Shown piece by piece: positions 21,021 through 61,638 of a DNA stretch of 64,000 nucleotides (position 1 is the stretch's first letter; the number at the start of each line of letters is the position of its first letter). Under the pieces are notes generated by a model, which was not told the origin of the DNA, did not search any database, and saw nothing but the letters and a program-made list of their open reading frames with translations. This DNA is from Candidatus Bathyarchaeota archaeon (GTDB lineage Archaea; Thermoproteota; Bathyarchaeia; Bathyarchaeales; Bathycorpusculaceae). The stretch is taken from NCBI GenBank assembly GCA_963833575.1, contig CAWHXY010000004.1:352001-416000 (forward strand), read 5' to 3'. The position numbers were made by a program, and so were the translations under genes.

Positions 21021-23642
21021 TTATGCACGTTTTCTGAGTAAAACCAATCCGACTACGGCTATTGCAATAATTATAACGATTACTCCAACGACGTTGTATA
21101 TCATGAGGTCTGCTGTTGTTGCTAAGTTTGATGGAGCGGTTGTCGTCATTGGTGTTGCTGCCGGAGAGGTGGCTGTGAAAGATGTTTCTGCAGATGTTGG
21201 ATAGTATGATTCTGAGCCTGCGAAGGTAGCGATGACTTTGTAGTCTCCGGTGATGTCGGGTTTCCAGGTGAATGTGAACATGCCGCTAGTGTCGCTTGTG
21301 GTTGTTCCAACGTTTCTTAGGTTACCGTTTGAGTCAACGACGTCAATTGAGATAGGAACACCGGTTGCGTTTGATGGGGGGGTTTGCTGCATGTAAACGT
21401 ATTCCATCCATGCTGACATGCTTGAATCTGAAACTACTGGAAGGCCATTAGGGAAGTTCTTTGCTACTGCTTGCTGCTGTGCGCCTGCAGAGATATCAGT
21501 TATTGTGCCTCTGATTACTACTGGTGCGCCTGTGGTTGTAACTGTATCAGGTGCGGTAACAGTCATAGCGGTAGGTCCTTGTCCATAGGAGTATAGCTGG
21601 TTGTCATAGGCGTTGAGTACGGTCATTATGCCATCAACTATAGTTGCGCCGTTAGTGACGTCGAAGCCGTTTATGCTCCAGATGAGTTTTCCGTTAGTGC
21701 AGTTAATTGCTAGTTGCTGTGCTCCCCTAAACAACGGCGGGCTGTATTCGTGACCCTCGTTGAGGAACCACACGCCATCTGCAACTGATCCTCCGCTGAA
21801 GACCCAGAGCGGCCAAACACCATATGGAGTATCAGAGCCAGCGAGACCAGTTACTGCGTTAGTGCTTGTGTACCACAAGATGTTTCCGTTCAATATGTTA
21901 ACTGCCCACATGTCTCCACCGAAACCCATTATGTACATTACGCCATTTGCCAGAATAGTTTGGTAACCGCCGATGCTGTCGTATGGGTTTGGAACATCGA
22001 AGATTCCATTGCTGCCTGAAAGCTGTACCGGACCCCATGATAGAACACCTGTATTCATATTATATCCAGTTAGTACTCCTGTGGCTGATTGCAGCTCAAC
22101 AAATATTCCGTATCCTGCAGTCGTAACGCTTACTCTTGTATATGGTGTTAGAGTTCTGTTAGTAACCCATAGCTGTGCTCCAGTGTTGGCATCAAAACCT
22201 GCTTCTATTTGGTAGCCAGTGTTGAAGTATGTTGCGTTTCCTGCAGTGAGCAGAACTACTCCGCTGTTGACAGTGCTTATCGATAGAGGCGCGGGGAACG
22301 GAATGTTTGAGATGTTGGTTGGTAGTTGGTTTGTCCAAACTGTGCCGCGACCAAAGTCAATGAGGCTGCCTAACGCTGGTCTTAGCATCCAGTTCGCGAC
22401 TGTAACACCGGGTGTATATTGGCTGGTAGGATAAAGAATGGCTTGAGTAGAGTTCCACATGTTAAGGGTTGGCTTGCTAGGAACTGTAGTGTTTACGAAG
22501 TAGCCGATCAAGTCTCCGTTTGAGTCTTCTGTTAGGGACATGGAGGTGCCGTTTGCGATGCTTAGAATGTAGTTGCCGGTCATTGCATCATAGATGTTGT
22601 AGGTGAGTCCTGTCAATACGGCTGTTGACGATAGCGAAGCTCCGAGTGGGTTACCAGTTGTCCACAAATATGCGGTAGTTCCATATTGGTTGGGTGATAC
22701 ATATTGGAGTAATTGGCCGCATCTTAAGGTCTGTGTGGAATTGTATGTCCATAGGGTTTGTCCTGTGCGTAAGTCTACTGCAATCCATCCTGCGGGATAT
22801 GTGGATGCTCCTGGGTATAGCTCGTAGTACATGACACCGTTCATGATGATTGGTGCCCATTTTGGTTCGTACTGAGAGGTTGAGTAATAGTTGCTTGTGT
22901 CGGTTCCACCGAATTCTCCGCCCACTAAGCCTCCGAACGCTACTGGTTTTGTCCAGAGGATGTGCGCAGCGTTTGGTGCAGTAGTGTATGGGTTGTAGTC
23001 TCCAGTCAGATTATACTTGCCTGTGTTAGCGAAACTGTGTAGACCTAATCCTAGCCAGTTGCCGGTAATGTTGTACCATAAGCCGTTTGTTGATTGTACT
23101 GGTCGTGTCCAATAGTTTGATGGAAGTGGAGTTGTTGGAATTTGTGGTATTGGCTGTTGTTGTACTGAAAGGATTACAGAGGGACTTGTAGAAGCCATGA
23201 ATGTGTCGTTAATGTATTCATTTGTTTTTGCTGCTCCGTTTTCACCTGTCAATACTTGTCCGGGAAAATTCATTACAAACGTGTAGTTGCCGGTTTGACT
23301 TGGCGTATAATCAGTGTGTGTTCCTCCGGTATCGTCAGTGGTAAACGGACCTAGAGTTTCTGTGGTTCCATCCGGATGAGTGACTGTAACAGTCAAGCCA
23401 TGCCATCTGTCTCCTAATGCGCCGTTAGCAGTAGGCGGCGGTATTTGCAACCAAAAGTTAACATTAACTGTCTGACCAATGCCGCAGGGGTTTGGTGCTA
23501 CATTCATGTAAGCGTATGTTATGATATGATATGGTGGCGTATGTGCACTAGTATTCGGAAATAGCATCATTGAAGCGCCCATAGAAATTATTAATAACAT
23601 CGAGATCGTAATAGCTGCTGTTTTATTCTTACCAATTTGCAT
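21021..23642 (-). CDS. PQQ-binding-like beta-propeller surface protein, paralog 1
   Basis: Signal peptide; AHILWT, EHEYSPPL and NAYDNQLY motifs; Ig-like domain, Thr/Pro linker, C-terminal TM plus basic tail. Confidence 0.85.
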   Translation of the reverse strand: MQIGKNKTAAITISMLLIISMGASMMLFPNTSAHTPPYHIITYAYMNVAPNPCGIGQTVNVNFWLQIPPPTANGALGDRWHGLTVTVTHPDGTTETLGPFTTDDTGGTHTDYTPSQTGNYTFVMNFPGQVLTGENGAAKTNEYINDTFMASTSPSVILSVQQQPIPQIPTTPLPSNYWTRPVQSTNGLWYNITGNWLGLGLHSFANTGKYNLTGDYNPYTTAPNAAHILWTKPVAFGGLVGGEFGGTDTSNYYSTSQYEPKWAPIIMNGVMYYELYPGASTYPAGWIAVDLRTGQTLWTYNSTQTLRCGQLLQYVSPNQYGTTAYLWTTGNPLGASLSSTAVLTGLTYNIYDAMTGNYILSIANGTSMSLTEDSNGDLIGYFVNTTVPSKPTLNMWNSTQAILYPTSQYTPGVTVANWMLRPALGSLIDFGRGTVWTNQLPTNISNIPFPAPLSISTVNSGVVLLTAGNATYFNTGYQIEAGFDANTGAQLWVTNRTLTPYTRVSVTTAGYGIFVELQSATGVLTGYNMNTGVLSWGPVQLSGSNGIFDVPNPYDSIGGYQTILANGVMYIMGFGGDMWAVNILNGNILWYTSTNAVTGLAGSDTPYGVWPLWVFSGGSVADGVWFLNEGHEYSPPLFRGAQQLAINCTNGKLIWSINGFDVTNGATIVDGIMTVLNAYDNQLYSYGQGPTAMTVTAPDTVTTTGAPVVIRGTITDISAGAQQQAVAKNFPNGLPVVSDSSMSAWMEYVYMQQTPPSNATGVPISIDVVDSNGNLRNVGTTTSDTSGMFTFTWKPDITGDYKVIATFAGSESYYPTSAETSFTATSPAATPMTTTAPSNLATTADLMIYNVVGVIVIIIAIAVVGLVLLRKRA

Positions 23643-24011
23643 TTTTGTTTTTTCTCCTAAATGTGTTTTTGTGCTGAGAAAAAGTAATGAATACTTTTCC
23701 CAACTCTGGACTTGTTTGTTAATGTTCTTTTAAATAACTTGTGTAATTTTTCTTTCTTGTAACAGTTTAAAAAAAGTTATTTGATGCCAGGTAAATGAGT
23801 TGAATTTGAATTATTCAGAAACATTATCTTCCAAAAAAGTGAGGGAAGACTTGTTACGCAGTCTTATTCGATGTTTTTCATAAATTTTCTGCTATTTGAG
23901 TTGGTTTTTTAGCAAAAACTGCTTTATGCATTAATTCATTTAGTTGTTAGGAGATGAGAATATCATTCGGGGTTGATTTGGAAAAAAATATAAAAGGACT
24001 CCGTGTAATTA

Positions 24012-45215: not shown

Positions 45216-45532
45216 TCTTAATCACCAGAAGAAAAGGCGTTAATACCATATGAAATATATAGTTTCTATAATTTATTTATTTTCCTTTCTCAGATTTAAA
45301 CCCAACAAGAAATTTTGGCAGCTTGAATTTCAATCACACTCATGGTTTTACTGCATATTTGGTGCAACAGAGGCATCAAATCGCACTATGTCAAATTGAG
45401 AAAATTTATTAACACGGTTGCAGTTCAAGTTTGGTTTGACGAAAGTAGCATTTTTGCTTACCCCAATTGGTAAGTTTTGCGCTTTCGTTAAAGAAAACAT
45501 AAAAATCTAAAAGAAAAGGAGAAAAAGAAAAA

Positions 45533-48355
45533 ATGCAAATTAGTAAAAACAAAACACTAGGTATTACGATCGCAATATTGTTAACAATTTCAATGGGAGC
45601 TTCAATGATGCTTATACCCAACGCTATCGCACACACACCATCACAGAGCATTCAACTCTTCGCATTTATCAATGTGGCACCTAACCCTGCAGGCATAGGT
45701 CAAGCTGTAACTGTCAGCTTCTTTCTCAATGAACCACCAATGACAGCAGGCGGTCCATATGGAGACAGATTTGGTCCTTTCACGGTAAATGTTGTAAAGC
45801 CTGATGGAACCAATGAGACACTCGGACCATTTATTTCCGATGACACAGGAGGAACAAGCACTCGCTACACACCCACTCAACTTGGCACATACCAATTCCA
45901 GATGTTTTTCCCAGGAATGAAAATGACTGGATCAACTAACAACCCAGCTTCAGCTGGCGTCAGTCCCAGCAGCGGGCTCATCAGTAATACTGCTTATATT
46001 AATGACACTCTCCTACCGGCAACAAGCTCAGTAGCAACGCTTACAGTGCAACAACAGCCAGTACCATATGTCGCAGGAGCTCCGCTTCCTACATCTTATT
46101 GGCAAACCCCAATAAACGCAATGAACGTTCAGAACTGGTACGCAATTGGCGGTCCTTACCTTGGCCTCTATATTGGTTACAGTGCAGGTAAAGGTGCTTC
46201 CAACTACAATACAACAACAAACTTCAACCCATACTCTTTGGCGCCACAAACATCTCACATCATGTGGACAAGACCAATAGCATTCGGAGGCACAATCGGT
46301 GGAGATGCAGGCGGAACAACAACCTACGGCAACTACTATTCAACCTCTCAGTACGAACGCAAATATGATCCAATAGTCATCAATGGCTACCTCTACTACA
46401 CTCAATTCCCAGGAAGCTCGACTAGCCCAGTAGCTAACGTCGCAGTTGACTTATTCACTGGAAAAACAATATGGACAAACGATGCAAGCAACTATAACGG
46501 TGGCAGTCCAACACAGAACATGCTAACAACGACAGGCGTCGTTACGCCATTTACATGTGGCCAAGTACTCGATTACGTGTCACCTAACCAATACGGAGGA
46601 ATTGCTTATTTATGGACAACAGGGAATCCTGCCTGGATCACTCCAAGTGTTATGAACTTAACTGGAACGACCCTAAACATGTTTGACGCTATGACTGGTA
46701 AATACATCCTCAGCATTGTTAACGGAACAGGTTTCAGCTATGGAAACACGGTAGACGCAAGTGGAGATTTGATATCTTACTACACAAATACCACCGTTGG
46801 AACACAAACAATCTACGGCCAAATTCTGCCGGTTACTGGACCAACACCGACAAAAGTCACTAACACTGCGGGCAACTCACTCCTCGAAGCATGGAACTCA
46901 ACTCAATGTATTATGGAAGGTGCTGGCTGGTCAACTGGATCGGCTTCAGGCTGGCAATGGAGACCCGTACAAGGTTCACTAATTCCATTTTCATATGGAA
47001 TACAATCCGCATGGCAACTACCTGGCACTGTACCAGTTGGTGCATACGCAAATAATGCTACATTGCCAAACACTTGGACAATCATGGGCGTTAACAGCGG
47101 TGTAGCTATTCTTTATTCAGCAGATAACGCAGGACTCACAAACTACTTCCAAAGAGGATCCACAGTCTTTACAGGTTACGACATAAACACGGGAAACCAG
47201 CTATTCGTCCAAAATGAAACCTTCACACCTTACACTGCAGTCAACCTAGACAACTATGGCAACGTCGCCGACGGACTTTTCACCACAGTTATCAAAGAAA
47301 CTGGTCAAGTTACCGCATTCAGTGTCACGACAGGCCAGCAAGCATGGCAAACAACACTTACAGGCGACAATGGCGCACCTATCAATCCATACGATACTAT
47401 CGGCGGAATCAAAGGAAACGTTTACGGCACCAGTTTCCTACTCTTCGGTTTCGGAGGAGACGCCTGGTCTTTAAACATGGCTAATGGCAAACTTAACTGG
47501 TATACAAACACAACTAAACTCATGGGCGACGCTGGCTCTAACACCCCATATGGCGTTTGGCCTATCTGGGTACAAACAGGCATTGGCGGCGGCGGCGGAA
47601 TAGAATGGCTTGAAGTAGGACACGAATATGCACCACCATTGTTCCTTGGAGCACAACTACTGGCATTGAACACTACAACTGGACAACTAGCATGGAGTAT
47701 ACCTTCCTTCGATGTTGATGCAAACCCCGAATTAGCATACGGCATTATGACAACACTAAACGCATATGACAACCAAGTCTACGCTTACGGCCAAGGACCA
47801 AGTGCAACGACTGTTACAGCACCCAGCGTAGGCGTAACAACAGCAACACCAGTAACCATAACAGGCACAGTAATGGACGTATCTGCAGGCGCAAAGCAAG
47901 AAGCAGTAGCAGCGAACTTCCCCAACGGTCTACCAGCAGTTTCTGATGCAAGCATGAGTTCGTTTATGGCATCTGTTTACATGCAACAACCAATTTCTCA
48001 TGACATTACCGGAGTTCCAGTTACACTAAGCGTTGTTGACTCAAACGGCAATTACAGAACCATAGGCAACACTACAACCGACGCTACAGGTTCGTATGGT
48101 CTCAAATGGACACCTGACATATCTGGCTCTTACACTATCGTTGCTACATTCTCAGGATCAGGAGCATACTACGGATCAACAGCTCAAACATACCTATATG
48201 CCAGCGCAGCAACCACACCAGCACCAACAACCGCACCTCAATCAAATCTAGCAACAACAGCAGATCTAATGATATACGTAGTCGCAGCAGCAATCGCCAT
48301 AATCATCGCAATAGCCATAGTTGGCATTGTAATAGTAATGCGGCTCAAAAAATAG
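45533..48355 (+). CDS. PQQ-binding-like beta-propeller surface protein, paralog 2
   Basis: Same architecture and many identical blocks as 21021-23642 (YYSTSQYE, GHEY.PPLF, NAYDNQ). Confidence 0.85.
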   Translation: MQISKNKTLGITIAILLTISMGASMMLIPNAIAHTPSQSIQLFAFINVAPNPAGIGQAVTVSFFLNEPPMTAGGPYGDRFGPFTVNVVKPDGTNETLGPFISDDTGGTSTRYTPTQLGTYQFQMFFPGMKMTGSTNNPASAGVSPSSGLISNTAYINDTLLPATSSVATLTVQQQPVPYVAGAPLPTSYWQTPINAMNVQNWYAIGGPYLGLYIGYSAGKGASNYNTTTNFNPYSLAPQTSHIMWTRPIAFGGTIGGDAGGTTTYGNYYSTSQYERKYDPIVINGYLYYTQFPGSSTSPVANVAVDLFTGKTIWTNDASNYNGGSPTQNMLTTTGVVTPFTCGQVLDYVSPNQYGGIAYLWTTGNPAWITPSVMNLTGTTLNMFDAMTGKYILSIVNGTGFSYGNTVDASGDLISYYTNTTVGTQTIYGQILPVTGPTPTKVTNTAGNSLLEAWNSTQCIMEGAGWSTGSASGWQWRPVQGSLIPFSYGIQSAWQLPGTVPVGAYANNATLPNTWTIMGVNSGVAILYSADNAGLTNYFQRGSTVFTGYDINTGNQLFVQNETFTPYTAVNLDNYGNVADGLFTTVIKETGQVTAFSVTTGQQAWQTTLTGDNGAPINPYDTIGGIKGNVYGTSFLLFGFGGDAWSLNMANGKLNWYTNTTKLMGDAGSNTPYGVWPIWVQTGIGGGGGIEWLEVGHEYAPPLFLGAQLLALNTTTGQLAWSIPSFDVDANPELAYGIMTTLNAYDNQVYAYGQGPSATTVTAPSVGVTTATPVTITGTVMDVSAGAKQEAVAANFPNGLPAVSDASMSSFMASVYMQQPISHDITGVPVTLSVVDSNGNYRTIGNTTTDATGSYGLKWTPDISGSYTIVATFSGSGAYYGSTAQTYLYASAATTPAPTTAPQSNLATTADLMIYVVAAAIAIIIAIAIVGIVIVMRLKK

Positions 48356-48421: not shown

Positions 48422-48519
48422 GAGATAAATAGTCTTTGTTTAGATTCACAAGACAGCTGTAATTCGTGATAGAGTTGGCATTTGCTCTTTTTATTGTTCT
48501 CGAAGTCTAAGCAAATCTC
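48422..48519 (+). ncRNA. Hairpin sRNA candidate, divergent member of the anti-RBS family
   Basis: 12-bp stem TTTGTTTAGATT/AGTCTAAGCAAA enclosing TCGTGATAG..TTGGCATTTGCTCTTTTT, shared with the 52483 and 61361 elements. Confidence 0.45.
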
Positions 48520-51867: not shown

Positions 51868-52458
51868 ATGAATAGCAAGGAAATAGGGACAGTTATTGCT
51901 TTCACAGCTCTTACAACAACGTTAAACTTTGTCCGAGTACCCGTGCCTTATATGCCGGCGTTCGCTTACCAGTTGGGCGATGTTGTTTTGGTCGTAGTGC
52001 TGTTACTTTTTGGCATCAGAATTGCCATCGCCGCAGCCACTTTGAATATGTTGATAAACATAGTGCTTTCTTTAAGTCCAGCAGGGCCGATTGGTCCACC
52101 TTACTATTTGTTATCGGTTGTTGCAATGTTTTCAGGAGTCTATATTTTTGAAAAAGTGATAAAGAGAAGAATACTAGCCAACCGAGATATAATCAAAACT
52201 GTTTCTCTTGCAACCGGATTTGGAGTTTTAACCAGAGTTCTGATCATGCTACCATTCGACTATTTTGTTTATGGTTTCTTGGTTTCTTTGGTATCTGGCT
52301 TGAGTATTTCGGTTTCGTATGCAATTGTGCTAGCTTCTATGCCCGGGATTATCGTATATAACATCACAGTTCCAGTTATTATGATTCCAATAAGCTATTC
52401 TATAGCCAAGAGCGTGTCGAAGTACCGCTTGTTAAAGTCTGATTCTACCTTGTTTTAA
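51868..52458 (+). CDS. ECF transporter S-component-like membrane protein
   Basis: About 6 TM helices; AFTALT...VPVPYMP..YQLGD motif. Confidence 0.7.
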   Translation: MNSKEIGTVIAFTALTTTLNFVRVPVPYMPAFAYQLGDVVLVVVLLLFGIRIAIAAATLNMLINIVLSLSPAGPIGPPYYLLSVVAMFSGVYIFEKVIKRRILANRDIIKTVSLATGFGVLTRVLIMLPFDYFVYGFLVSLVSGLSISVSYAIVLASMPGIIVYNITVPVIMIPISYSIAKSVSKYRLLKSDSTLF

Positions 52459-52482
52459 GATGTTAGGTATAGGCAGAAATTA

Positions 52483-52588
52483 AGAGTTTGCTGAGGCTCT
52501 GTCCACTTTAGGAGAAAAGAACGCAAATGCAAATGCGCTATCACGATTGCTAATATCATGATTAAGCCAGAGTCCTATTCAGCCTCTT
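52483..52588 (-). ncRNA. Hairpin sRNA candidate with BHB-like closing stem and anti-SD/anti-AUG loop
   Basis: AAGAG-GCUGA-AUA-GGACUCUG...CAGAGCC-UCAGC-AAA-CUCUU; loop UUUGCAUUUGCGUUCUUUUCUCCUAAA; covaries with the 61361 copy. Confidence 0.65.
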
Positions 52589-52644
52589 CTATTATGTTCT
52601 TTGTTGGGACTAAAAAAAAGGAATAGGGTTTTGATTGTGGTTGC

Positions 52645-55173
52645 TTATGCTCGTTTTCTGAGCATTAGCACCATTACCATGCCGACTATTGCTATCGCAA
52701 TGATAATTGCAACTACTGCTGGGACAAAGTACGTATCGTATGCTGAAGTGTTATTCTGGACTATTGGTTGAGATGTTGCTGCTGGTGCATTTTCTACGTT
52801 TATGGCAGTTTCAGCTGTTGATCCATAATATGAATTGGAGCCTTCGAAATTAGTAGAGACTGTGTATTGTCCTGGGACACTTGGAGTGAAAGTAAAGCTG
52901 TAGTAGCCGTTTGCATCGCTTGTTGCTGTACCAACTGTGTAAGTATTGTTGTTGGGGTCGAGAACACTGATTGTAACGGGTACTCCTGTGGCGTTAGTTG
53001 GTCGTGGATACTGCATATAGACATATTGCATCCATTCTGTTTGACTTGCGTCAGAGACAGCGGGTACACCTAGTGGGAACCGCGCAGCGACATCATATGT
53101 TTTGGTGCCTGGGGCTATATCAGTAACATACCCTTGCACCATTACTTTATCGCCGTTTATTGATATTGTCGGATCTGCTTGAACTGTTGTTTCAGTTGCG
53201 CCTTTTCCAAATGCATATATACGGTTGTCGTATCCTGCGTTGAGTCCTGCAATTACTCCGTCACCGATAACTGGCGTTCCGCCCCACCAACTGTCAAACC
53301 AACTGCAGGTGTATATTACCTGACCGCTTGTTGCGTTGAGGCAGGTCATATATGCACCTTTAGCTTGTAGGTTGGGGTGGTGTGTTGCGTAGGACAAGTA
53401 GAGTTTTCCGTCAGTAGCGAACCAGAACACTGTCGGCCAATTGTTGCTCCACAAGACTTGAGCATAGTAGTCTGTACAGTTGTAGGTCCATAATCTTTGG
53501 CCAGTGTGGATATTGTAGGCAATTGTCATTCCGCTCTGGCGTTCGCTGTAGAAGATGCCATATGCGATCATGGGGCCGTACCATTTGTCATAGTACGCAA
53601 GGTATGGTTCTTGGTCGGTTTGCCATAAGTAAGCACCCGTGTCTAAACTAAAGCCGTAGAATCTTAGACTTTCTCTGCAAGATATAATGAATACACGATC
53701 AGTGAAGCTCACATCACTCCATACCCAAGTTCCTCCGGTAAAATCTGATGGTACTGTCCAAGTGTTATTGAAGATCAGTTGTCCAGCGGTCCCTACCTTT
53801 GTGCTTATAGCCCATGAAGTAATTGTTGGTCCGGTTGCACCTGGGAATGCGGATGATGTTGATCCAAGTACGCAATCGTCAAATTGAGCATTGCAAACAG
53901 CTCCGGGCAAACCAAGGGGTATCGAAACGTTATAATCATAACCTTGGCTTGCGTCTATTATGCTTCCGATTGGAGTCCAACTGCCATCACCGACTGACCC
54001 CGTAAGCTGTGGGTTGATTGCTCTGCTTGAGTTCCATTCAGTCAACCTACCATTTGTAGTGTCAACGGTGTATCTGTAGATTACGCCATCTGGTCCATAG
54101 TAGTTGTAGTCTGGATTTCCCGCAGGCACGTTTATTAGTTGATATAGCCAGCGTCCAGTAAGAGGGTCATACGCATTCCAAGTATAGGATAATGTTTGCC
54201 CGAATGCACCGGTTACAGGTGTCGAAGTGAATAAGTATGCGAAAGTGCCGTCAAGGTTGAATCCTTTCCAGTGGAAGACTTGGCCAAAGGATAGGCGTGT
54301 GTTGTTCCAGTTCTTTTCCCAAAGTTGTTCTCCAGTTTTAAGGTTTATAGCTACAACTGTTTGTTCAGATATTGGTGCTCCGGTTGAATCATATCTGTTG
54401 AAGTACAATACGCCGTTGATTACTATTGTGTTTAAGAATTTGCCTACGTATGCATCGCCCATCTCCATTCCTCCTCCTTCAGCGGTAATGTTGCCGCCTG
54501 CCAATCCTCCTTCAGCGTATTGATAAGTCCATAGTACGTGAGCGGTTTCAGGTGCACCTTCGTTACCGGGTATGTACTTATCATCTGGGGGCATTGTGTA
54601 ACTTCCTATGGCTCTTAGCCAGTCACCGGTCAATGGAGCCCATTGTTCGAATTGGGCGTTTATTGGACGGTTCCAGTATTCAGTTGGCAGTGGGAAAGCT
54701 GGAAAATAAGCTATTGGGTTTTGCTGTACTACTAGGTAAGTTATTGGACTGTCACTGGCGGCGTATGGTATGGAGCCAACTCCTACGAAGGGAATTGCCA
54801 TGTTTTGTGCTGGGAAGTGGGTTTGGAATTTGTATGTGCCGACCATTGTTGGAACATAAATTGAGCCTGTCCCCCCTGTTGCGTCAGTACTAAATGGGCC
54901 TAGGGTTTCAGTGGTGTTGTCAGGTTTTGTTACTGTTACAGTCAATCCTGTCCATTTAAAATAGGTTCCAGCTGTGGGTTCTGATATTCCGATGTGGAGA
55001 AGGACTTCTTGGCCAACGCCGACTGGATTTGGGGTAGTTCCGAGAAACGCATATGTTTTTTTAGGAGTTGCTGTTGTTGTCTGCGCATTGCTTGTTGGAT
55101 ATGCTGCAATTAGAGAAACTGCAAATGCAAGTATAATAAATACTGCTGCGATTTGATTTATGCTTGTTTTCAT
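52645..55173 (-). CDS. PQQ-binding-like beta-propeller surface protein, paralog 3 (more divergent)
   Basis: PNPVGVGQ, AHVLWT, YDNRIYAFGKG and PAVSDAS motifs; C-terminal TM plus RKRA. Confidence 0.85.
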   Translation of the reverse strand: MKTSINQIAAVFIILAFAVSLIAAYPTSNAQTTTATPKKTYAFLGTTPNPVGVGQEVLLHIGISEPTAGTYFKWTGLTVTVTKPDNTTETLGPFSTDATGGTGSIYVPTMVGTYKFQTHFPAQNMAIPFVGVGSIPYAASDSPITYLVVQQNPIAYFPAFPLPTEYWNRPINAQFEQWAPLTGDWLRAIGSYTMPPDDKYIPGNEGAPETAHVLWTYQYAEGGLAGGNITAEGGGMEMGDAYVGKFLNTIVINGVLYFNRYDSTGAPISEQTVVAINLKTGEQLWEKNWNNTRLSFGQVFHWKGFNLDGTFAYLFTSTPVTGAFGQTLSYTWNAYDPLTGRWLYQLINVPAGNPDYNYYGPDGVIYRYTVDTTNGRLTEWNSSRAINPQLTGSVGDGSWTPIGSIIDASQGYDYNVSIPLGLPGAVCNAQFDDCVLGSTSSAFPGATGPTITSWAISTKVGTAGQLIFNNTWTVPSDFTGGTWVWSDVSFTDRVFIISCRESLRFYGFSLDTGAYLWQTDQEPYLAYYDKWYGPMIAYGIFYSERQSGMTIAYNIHTGQRLWTYNCTDYYAQVLWSNNWPTVFWFATDGKLYLSYATHHPNLQAKGAYMTCLNATSGQVIYTCSWFDSWWGGTPVIGDGVIAGLNAGYDNRIYAFGKGATETTVQADPTISINGDKVMVQGYVTDIAPGTKTYDVAARFPLGVPAVSDASQTEWMQYVYMQYPRPTNATGVPVTISVLDPNNNTYTVGTATSDANGYYSFTFTPSVPGQYTVSTNFEGSNSYYGSTAETAINVENAPAATSQPIVQNNTSAYDTYFVPAVVAIIIAIAIVGMVMVLMLRKRA

Positions 55174-61360: not shown

Positions 61361-61475
61361 AGTAGGGTTTGCTGAGGCTCTGGGAGTTTTCTTTTAGGAG
61401 AAAAAGAAAAATGCAAATACCATCACGATTGCTATTGTACTTCGTGAATTTAACCAGAGCCTACTCAGCCCCACT
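61361..61475 (-). ncRNA. Hairpin sRNA candidate with BHB-like closing stem and anti-SD/anti-AUG loop
   Basis: GGG-GCUGA-GUA-GGCUCUGG...CCAGAGCC-UCAGC-AAA-CCC; loop AUUUGCAUUUUUCUUUUUCUCCUAAA is complementary to 45517-45540 and 23635-23661. Confidence 0.7.
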
Positions 61476-61638
61476 GTTTTTGATTGGTTAACTCTTATTG
61501 GCACATTCTCTTAAGAATATGTAATCAGTGCCACTTCTGACAGGAATTGGTAGCAATTTGAGACTAAATTTGACTGAATGTGGAAAAAAGTTGATAAGTC
61601 CCTGCAAAAATTCTCATTTGCTTTGAGGGAGAATAGCA

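Follow-up and report, generated by a model that had tools for sequence, protein, structure and literature searches.

A window of 64,000 nucleotides from Candidatus Bathyarchaeota archaeon (positions 352,001 to 416,000 of contig CAWHXY010000004.1, assembly GCA_963833575.1; "the window" throughout) contains a new, conserved, structured repeat that is tied to genes for PQQ surface proteins, of which this genome has 30 paralogs. The copy considered most closely here, the 52483 element, begins on the minus strand 57 nt past the TAA of an 842-aa open reading frame at 52645-55173, which we call paralog 3. The outer stem of the element is a canonical bulge-helix-bulge (BHB) on the strand of the preceding PQQ gene only (the gene strand), which makes it a predicted substrate of the archaeal splicing endonuclease EndA. 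Its interior is a shortened image of the ribosome-binding site, the start codon, and codons ~10-15 of the PQQ paralogs themselves. We consider it quite possible, though a little short of probable, that a precursor transcribed from the gene strand is cut by EndA and perhaps circularized, and that the product pairs with the translation starts of the paralogs that begin with MQ (MQ-type).

The repeat was recovered by nhmmer in 26 copies with E <= 1.2e-9, plus 2 weak ones, in the 2.75-Mb genome. The 52483 element and a second full copy in the window, the 61361 element, both belong to this 26-copy family and can be aligned end to end, in agreement with the homology proposed in the initial annotation of the sequence. 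The sequence details quoted there for the 52483 element are all present (the outer stem, the inner hairpin AUCAUGAU/AUCGUGAU, the loops UUUGCAUU and CUUUUCUCCU, and the host start), and the outer pairs do show the compensatory change described, AAGAG/CUCUU as compared with GGG/CCC in the 61361 copy, including one A-U versus G-C (alignment pair 5/138). Among the 26 aligned own-genome copies the consensus structure is 90% paired versus 31-48% with slid partners, and 11 pairs have changed on both sides, a count matched by 0 of 500 shuffles. The copies of relatives (n=102) are 94% paired, and 12 of their 16 outer pairs have changes on both sides; one scan of relatives' loci drew on 100 sources, with 6 of 106 loci left out. 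Within the element the stem of hairpin P2 covaries among copies (GAGCA/UGCUC, CGCA/UGCG, AAAAGAAA/UUUCUUUU). The minus-strand fold of the 52483 copy has an energy of -34.9 kcal/mol (z = -3.4), and the plus-strand fold has -27.7 kcal/mol (z = -1.5).

A covariance model built from the own-genome copies matched 21 of the 24 other species sampled from the genus, as well as one genome from a different family, at 0 to 22 copies per genome; 15 further genomes of the order gave no match. A class-wide draw of 120 genomes, searched with stricter filters, gave matches solely in two families (4 of 9 and 2 of 3 genomes); the other 28 families, represented by 108 genomes, had none. Rfam 15 had 0 matches across the window at the gathering threshold, with only noise (E >= 6) within 52400-52700, and ARAGORN found no tRNA in the window. 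No K-turn, C/D-box, or H/ACA motif was seen in the element on inspection by eye only, and a description of the element was not found in the literature searched, a search that did not extend to supplementary files. We also considered a small protein-coding gene and rejected it. Reading frames differ among the copies, with loop variants AAUGAAAA, AAUAAAAA, and AACGAAAA; the "AUG" varies within this genome, and in one copy from G040 (G numbers are compared genomes, G000 being this genome, and L numbers are fetched loci) it is ACG, matched by a compensatory change on the pairing strand. The element is therefore not coding.

The link to PQQ genes is one of position and orientation. Of the 28 own copies, 18 sit 61-75 nt beyond the stop codon of a PQQ gene, in one orientation throughout, such that the plus-type reading of the element is convergent to the gene; one of the genes ahead of these 18 comes from a second PQQ subfamily. 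Foreign paralog loci fetched via their protein carried the element in 15 of 29 cases, and all 15 of these elements lie directly behind the stop in the identical orientation, an arrangement kept down to 34-44% protein identity. In G040, 14 of 15 paralogs have an element 37-55 nt behind the stop. These counts make placement relative to PQQ genes non-random, as the initial annotation presumed. The other 10 own copies are not behind a PQQ gene.

Some loci have arrangements of their own. Two elements stand in tandem at G000:C4:949049-949445 between two PQQ genes of the same orientation, the second of them 148 nt ahead of the start of the next gene. A small palindromic motif, CAGUGYCAYUUCUGACA, is common to two orphan or tandem copies (window ~61540-61565 and G000:C4 ~949250, minus strand), where it is located 75-95 nt away from the element on the plus-type strand. 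The paralogs G000:C4:949593-952175 and G000:C7:124169-126736 have near-identical coding sequences (branch lengths 0.004 and 0.005) and flanks that are unrelated up to the start and stop codons, and just one of them has an element. This looks like gene conversion confined to the coding body.

The ends of the element have the geometry of a splicing endonuclease substrate. The outer stem is interrupted once on each strand, by a bulge of 3 nt in 101 of 102 relatives' copies at one site and in 102 of 102 at the other, and between the bulges lie the four pairs of GCUG/CAGC (helix H), which are Watson-Crick in 95-100 of the 102. The pairs that set the register of this 4-bp helix covary (AU 75/GC 9 and GC 94/AU 3), and the register is backed by 12 compensatory cells, compared with 1 register-specific covarying cell for a rival 6-bp register. 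On one side is the outer helix h, which is 89% paired and 3 bp long, reaching 5-6 bp in the window copy and in G040, and on the other the inner helix h' of 9 bp, which is 94% paired and in which all 9 pairs have changed on both sides among relatives.

The handedness expected of a BHB was taken from three intron-bearing tRNAs of this genome. Along their 5' strand the order is stem, central helix, bulge, inner helix, and along their 3' strand it is inner helix, central helix, bulge, stem, with tRNA-Arg(ccg) as the clean case (UCGGC-CUCC-GG/A-CGCUUC ... GAAGCG-GGAG-UU/A-GCCGA, slashes marking the cuts). On the gene strand the element reads GGG-GCUG-AGA-AGGCUCUGG ... CCAGAGCCU-CAGC-AAA-CCC, with AGU as the first bulge in the 61361 copy (GGG-GCUG-AGU-AGGCUCUGG ... 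CCAGAGCCU-CAGC-AAA-CCC). The plus-strand consensus is GGG-UUU-GCUGAGGCUCUGG ... AGGAGAAAA ... a small hairpin with loop AAUGCAAA ... UCACGA-loop-UCGUGA ... CCAGAGCCU-UCU-CAGC-CCC. Of 153 unique copies, 129 passed a strict test of the canonical topology when read on the gene strand and 2 when read on the other. Since the tRNA-type order is present on the gene strand only, it provides a sharper argument for that strand.

The genome encodes enzymes that could act on such a structure. There are two separate EndA-family genes (PF01974; 203 and 198 aa; G000:C7:351219-351458 and G000:C6:37209-37463), the arrangement expected of the two-subunit enzyme type, and one RtcB gene of 494 aa. The two-subunit type is said, in the part of PMC7714728 that treats it, to accept relaxed BHB motifs. 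As for the tRNA introns of this genome, ARAGORN predicts eight intron-bearing tRNAs in G000, some with introns that are long or oddly placed (for example C4:608391-608490, C4:744701-744822, and C6:127089-127259). In one predicted intron of 81 nt there is a stretch, GGGUUUGCUGA, that matches the element arm over 11 nt, which is at about chance level for the genome.

The interior of the element resembles the 5' ends of the PQQ genes. In this genus it reads, in plus-type orientation, AGGAGAAAA(A)GAAAAA-AUGCAAAU and then GCUAUCACGAUUGCUAU, while the paralog 5' ends read AGGAGAAAAAGAAAAA-AUG-CAA-AUU, then ~20 nt, then GCUAUUACGAUUGCAAU. A 25-nt stretch of one paralog start, that of paralog 2, recurs unchanged in the interiors of several elements. 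Of the 26 genomic occurrences of the motif GGAGRARA-N2-10-AWGCAAA, 17 are in elements, 5 at MQ paralog starts, and 4 elsewhere. In G040 the motif set of this genus (AGGAG, AUGCAAAU, GCUAUCACGAUUGC) is replaced by GGUG, AUGAAAAAAC, and UGCUACUAUCACUUUGGU. The G040 elements read GGUGAAAAA-AUGAAAAAAC-(CA)-UGCUACUAUCACUUUGGU, the G040 paralog L207 reads GGUGAAAAAGA-AUGAAAAAC, 20 nt, and then UGCUACUAUCACUUUGGU, and the elements have 18 nt identical to the 5' coding sequence of L207, so that elements and paralogs of G040 depart from this genus in the same way. Element interiors likewise track their own paralogs in the lineages L183 and L177. The same internal gap is found in all lineages, which indicates an old architecture whose sequence is still tracking the paralogs.

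Read on the gene strand, these segments are antisense to the paralog starts. The P2 loop UUUGCAUU is antisense to A-AUG-CAA-A, the start of the MQ-type paralogs, and the loop and 3' half of hairpin P3 are antisense to codons ~10-15 (GCUAUYACGAUUGC). In the predicted folds, and in keeping with the covarying stems, UUUGCAUU would be exposed in its loop and CUUUUCUCCU between helices. The Shine-Dalgarno (SD) image and the loop are the best conserved parts of the interior, while their stems covary.

The similarity was scored against 242 other genes with an SD (GGAG site), with the element arms left out of both the start-match and the duplex tests. Paralog starts matched element interiors with a median score of 15 versus 8.5 for controls (p = 7e-13). 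The mean energy of interior-only antisense duplexes was -23.6 kcal/mol for the seven MQ paralogs, -17.3 for the other paralogs, and -16.8 for controls, and MQ starts were preferred by 25 of 26 elements; the complementarity of the gene-strand loops to MQ SD/start regions claimed earlier is therefore above background. For the 52483 element the best predicted target is paralog 1 (MQIG) at -33.0 kcal/mol, with 0 of 242 controls as strong, followed by paralog 2 (MQIS) at -24.1 (14 of 242). Its own host, paralog 3, with the start GAAAGGAATGTAAAACATGAAAAC, reaches -19.9 (51 of 242), in line with the initial annotation, in which the loop matches the MQI paralogs and not the start of paralog 3. Energies of whole-element duplexes did not separate the PQQ family from controls; they are uninformative because the GC-rich arms pair with anything, and interior-only tests were used instead.

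Taken together, the element would be an RNA gene on the same strand as the preceding PQQ-protein gene. An EndA of the heterotetramer type would cut in both 3-nt bulges and release an RNA of 90-110 nt, predicted for the 52483 copy as 52488-52577 (90 nt), with possible circularization by the ligase RtcB. This RNA would keep the 9-bp stem and display, in two hairpin loops and one single-stranded stretch, sequence antisense to the SD, the AUG-CAA start, and codons ~10-15. It would then pair with the start region of matching MQ-type paralogs and lower their translation. Transcription of the gene strand, cleavage, circularization, and repression are each proposed from sequence.

The initial annotation had gone further and suggested that a gene with an element behind it lacks the target, with mutually exclusive expression of the paralogs as the outcome. 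Part of this stands in G000, where 0 of 16 strong carriers but 7 of 14 other paralogs start with MQ (Fisher p = 0.0017). The pattern does not extend to the other genomes in which it was checked: in G003 4 of 7 MQ paralogs are carriers versus 7 of 8 others (p = 0.28), and in G040 14 of 15 paralogs are carriers. Nor are host starts matched worse by their own element than by other elements (mean rank 0.56, p = 0.41). Independent pairs on a quick protein tree gave 0 same and 4.5 opposite on average (p ~0.06), with the element and MQ traits scattered. That tree is built from the coding body, which is prone to gene conversion with borders at the stop codon, and since coding bodies are exchanged in this way it is not the history of the flanks. 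Carriers may thus be biased against MQ starts, with no rule. Of the MQ paralogs of this genome, only paralog 2 has so much as a remnant of an element behind it, namely the decayed third copy in the window, in which the arms have degenerated and AAUAAAAAGAG stands in place of the AGGAG image.

Mutual exclusion is unsupported for a further reason, which is that nearly all elements share one specificity, so that there are many carriers and few targets. This shared specificity fits a hierarchy better. In its fullest form, many PQQ loci would each release a circular antisense RNA via the splicing endonuclease and RtcB and would jointly hold down the few paralogs that they mirror, giving a paralog hierarchy through BHB excision and the first regulatory RNA family in Bathyarchaeia. 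We put this forward as a speculative extension that has some chance of being right but is rather unlikely as a whole.

How the precursor would arise depends on the sequence between the stop codon and the element. A matching T-run is kept behind an element-less paralog too, which suggests that the U-run found there is probably the terminator of the paralog mRNA. The end of the U-run lies mostly 26-34 nt ahead of the central helix, a distance that would suit a start site at helix h, and the run might then serve as a TATA-like box as well; alternatively, transcription of the host gene may read through. The strand and spacing of the element agree with an origin in the same transcript as the upstream gene, with the U6-U8 run intervening. 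The spacer that separates the U-run from the element has a gene-strand sequence, GCAAUGGAGAAGAG, that is conserved in the genus and could pair with the CUUUUCUCC stretch of the element. In the spacer at 52589-52611 and in those of relatives (L058-L166), AGUCUUAAAAAGCAAUGGAGAAGAG is conserved on the gene strand; it begins with a part similar to the TATA region ahead of paralogs, AGUCUUAUAAA, and includes a GGAGAAGAG part that could pair with the same CUUUUCUCC.

The strand on which the element is expressed, and its expression itself, we infer, and several observations weigh against an RNA excised from the gene strand and aimed at MQ-type starts. Wobble counts are not clean: all modelled pairs together give 89 G-U versus 80 A-C on the gene strand, and the surplus in H and h' (G-U 45 versus A-C 20) is opposed in the outer helix h, which favors the other strand 20 to 7. 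Fold energies of both strands across 153 copies show no separation (p = 0.14); of the own copies, 23 of 26 have the better fold on the gene strand, but 9 of 10 G040 copies have it on the other. The strict BHB test was failed by 24 of 153 copies, and on the plus-strand reading the 6-bp register pairs as well as the 4-bp one. The U6-U8 run, a likely terminator of the host gene, separates the stop codon from the element. A T5 run follows within 25 nt past the element on the opposite strand in 46 of 101 copies, compared with 6 of 101 on the gene strand, and such runs would suit a convergent small RNA. Finally, gene conversion does occur in the PQQ family, and this process rather than selection for pairing could keep the similarity to paralog starts.

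Several of these points would find a place if the element were instead a small RNA gene on the window plus strand, convergent with the PQQ gene and a mimic of the family start region. Such an RNA would present the SD and the AUG, each in a loop, together with the first of the signal-peptide codons, and could serve as a decoy for a factor that binds those starts, for instance the small ribosomal subunit, a repressor protein, or a further RNA. The T5 runs would then follow its closing stem, the wobble pairs of helix h and the folds of G040 would fall into line, the unpaired regions are A-rich on that strand, and the match to paralog starts holds equally. Against this, the near-invariant 3-nt bulges and 4-bp helix are without known role in the mirror topology, wobble in H and h' goes the other way (20 versus 45), and the T-runs may be no more than a purine-rich leader of the gene-strand RNA seen from the opposite strand. 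No conserved promoter was found at any fixed distance upstream on the plus-type strand among 101 relatives' copies and 14 G040 copies, and conservation ends within ~7 nt beyond the far end of the element. We regard a plus-strand mimic as unlikely.

We would give about as little credence to a selfish or neutral repeat, either an intron-like BHB or something like a miniature inverted-repeat transposable element (MITE), that arose from one inverted copy of a paralog 5' end and duplicates along with the genes, its interior kept by gene conversion with no regulatory role. The 10 own copies away from PQQ genes fit this explanation, as do the decayed copies, the sharp borders of gene conversion in the paralog coding regions, and an arm sequence far more conserved than the helix alone requires. 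The intact 61361 orphan is missing from the syntenic loci of two close relatives, G044 and G009, and copies are thus able to move or to outlive their gene. Position and orientation are nevertheless constant down to the most distant foreign loci, the SD image and loop are the most conserved parts inside while the stems covary, and the inverted blocks shared with paralog starts, at 17-25 nt, are short for conversion. By eye, no target-site duplication is evident at the orphan. The scattered insertion sites with target-site duplications that mark a MITE-like mobile repeat are not what was found, the place behind PQQ genes being fixed, although the single non-syntenic orphan may leave the element some mobility. 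The inverted image of the 5' end could alternatively serve at the DNA level as an inversion or recombination partner that switches off or shuffles genes, and the near symmetry of G-U and A-C is as expected from a DNA palindrome; after an inversion, the plus-strand T-run behind the element could stop transcription. The shared blocks are again only 17-25 nt long, no neighboring recombinase gene was noticed at the copies, and compensatory changes within single copies indicate a folded single strand. Inversion of the host gene via its own 5' image was rejected, as host starts do not match their own elements (own scores 6-13.5, the level of controls). A DNA-level role of any kind seems very unlikely to us.

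Table. Coordinates, in the window, of the element copies, the predicted parts of the 52483 element, and associated genes and start regions.
Feature	Position	Strand	Remarks
Element, outer helix to outer helix	52482-52588	-	Covariance model R1, 86 bits, E = 5e-16
Outer helix h, 5' strand AAGAG	52584-52588	-	Pairs with CUCUU at 52482-52486 (fold)
Central helix H, 4 bp, 5' strand GCUG	52580-52583	-	Pairs with CAGC at 52490-52493
Bulge B1, 3 nt, AAU	52577-52579	-	Predicted cut between 52578 and 52577 (after second base), from the tRNA rule
Inner helix h', 5' strand AGGACUCUG, one bulged A	52568-52576	-	Pairs with CAGAGCCU at 52494-52501
Hairpin P3, AUCAUGAU-loop-AUCGUGAU	52540-52562	-	G-U present on minus strand (fold)
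Hairpin P2	52520-52539	-	8-nt loop UUUGCAUU at 52526-52533
Single-stranded CUUUUCUCCU	52510-52519	-	Antisense to family Shine-Dalgarno AGGAGAAAAG
Bulge B2, 3 nt, AAA	52487-52489	-	Predicted cut between 52488 and 52487 (after second base)
U8 run (A8 on plus strand)	52612-52619	-	Between paralog 3 stop and element
Paralog 3, host gene, 842 aa	52645-55173	-	Pfam PQQ_2 at 2.3e-7, Big_3_5, CarboxypepD_reg
Second full copy (61361 element), orphan	61365-61472	-	No adjoining PQQ gene; same BHB
Third copy, decayed	48428-48515	+	nhmmer E = 9e-4, covariance model E = 9e-6; 73 nt behind paralog 2 (45533-48355, MQIS)
Paralog 1 start region (gene 21021-23642, MQIG)	23628-23667	-	Best predicted target of 52483 element
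Paralog 2 start region, AGGAGAAAAAGAAAAAATGCAAATT	45508-45547	+	Predicted target

Paralog 3 itself combines a PQQ-type beta-propeller with Ig-like domains, a C-terminal membrane anchor, and a ...LRKRA tail. According to the passages of PMC11697101 on PQQ-domain gene expansions, Bathyarchaeia rank with the most abundant archaea of sediments, and the extracellular PQQ-domain proteins that have expanded in them presumably act on lignin or humic matter; the element is not mentioned in those passages. The repeat may bear on how dozens of PQQ paralogs are controlled in this group. If an RNA excised from the gene strand does act on the MQ-type starts, the splicing endonuclease would gain a role in gene regulation, and cross-talk between paralogs of an archaeon by way of RNA would become open to direct test.

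Elements of this scheme can be found in several known systems. The small RNA (sRNA) sRNA162 of Methanosarcina mazei reportedly masks a ribosome-binding site. Like it (PMC3510493), the element is predicted to pair with the SD and start region of mRNAs through exposed segments, but sRNA162 is single-copy, has no BHB, is not associated with the 3' ends of paralogous genes, and shares no sequence with the element.

In Listeria the sibling sRNAs LhrC1-5 are said to use CU-rich loops to target the SD regions of surface-protein mRNAs. The element resembles them in its several near-identical copies, its pyrimidine-rich loops facing an AG-rich SD, and its surface-protein targets, whereas LhrC1-5 are bacterial, Hfq-linked, and unrelated in sequence; the Rfam LhrC hit near the element is noise (15 bits versus a gathering score of 110, E = 9.5) and lies outside it. 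Young plant microRNA genes are born by inverted duplication of their target genes, and here too the regulator would be an inverted image of its target, which explains both origin and specificity. The analogy is one of origin only, as plant microRNAs differ in domain of life, processing machinery, and size. Bacteria also have sRNAs derived from 3' untranslated regions (UTRs), and archaea have alternative 3' UTR isoforms. The element shares with such sRNAs its place directly behind a coding gene on the same strand. They are released by RNase E or by termination, unlike the element, in which a U-run intervenes and release would be by the splicing endonuclease.

A comparison can also be made with known BHB substrates, which include tRNA introns, the processing stems of 16S and 23S rRNA, the cbf5 mRNA intron, and the 5' UTR intron of Haloferax HVO_1309, and whose products are often circular (PMC7714728, in its treatment of these substrates). 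Outside tRNA and rRNA, the same part of that source cites only two, the cbf5 mRNA and the one Haloferax 5' UTR. The element has the 4-bp helix, the 3-nt bulges on opposite strands, the tRNA-type topology, and the helices on both sides that these substrates have (PMC7714728, same passages). It differs in that its cleavage is predicted and in that it lies outside tRNA, rRNA, and coding regions, in ~27 copies per genome and behind the genes of one paralog family. In the element, moreover, the conserved target-like sequence is in the part that would be excised and not in the joined flanks.

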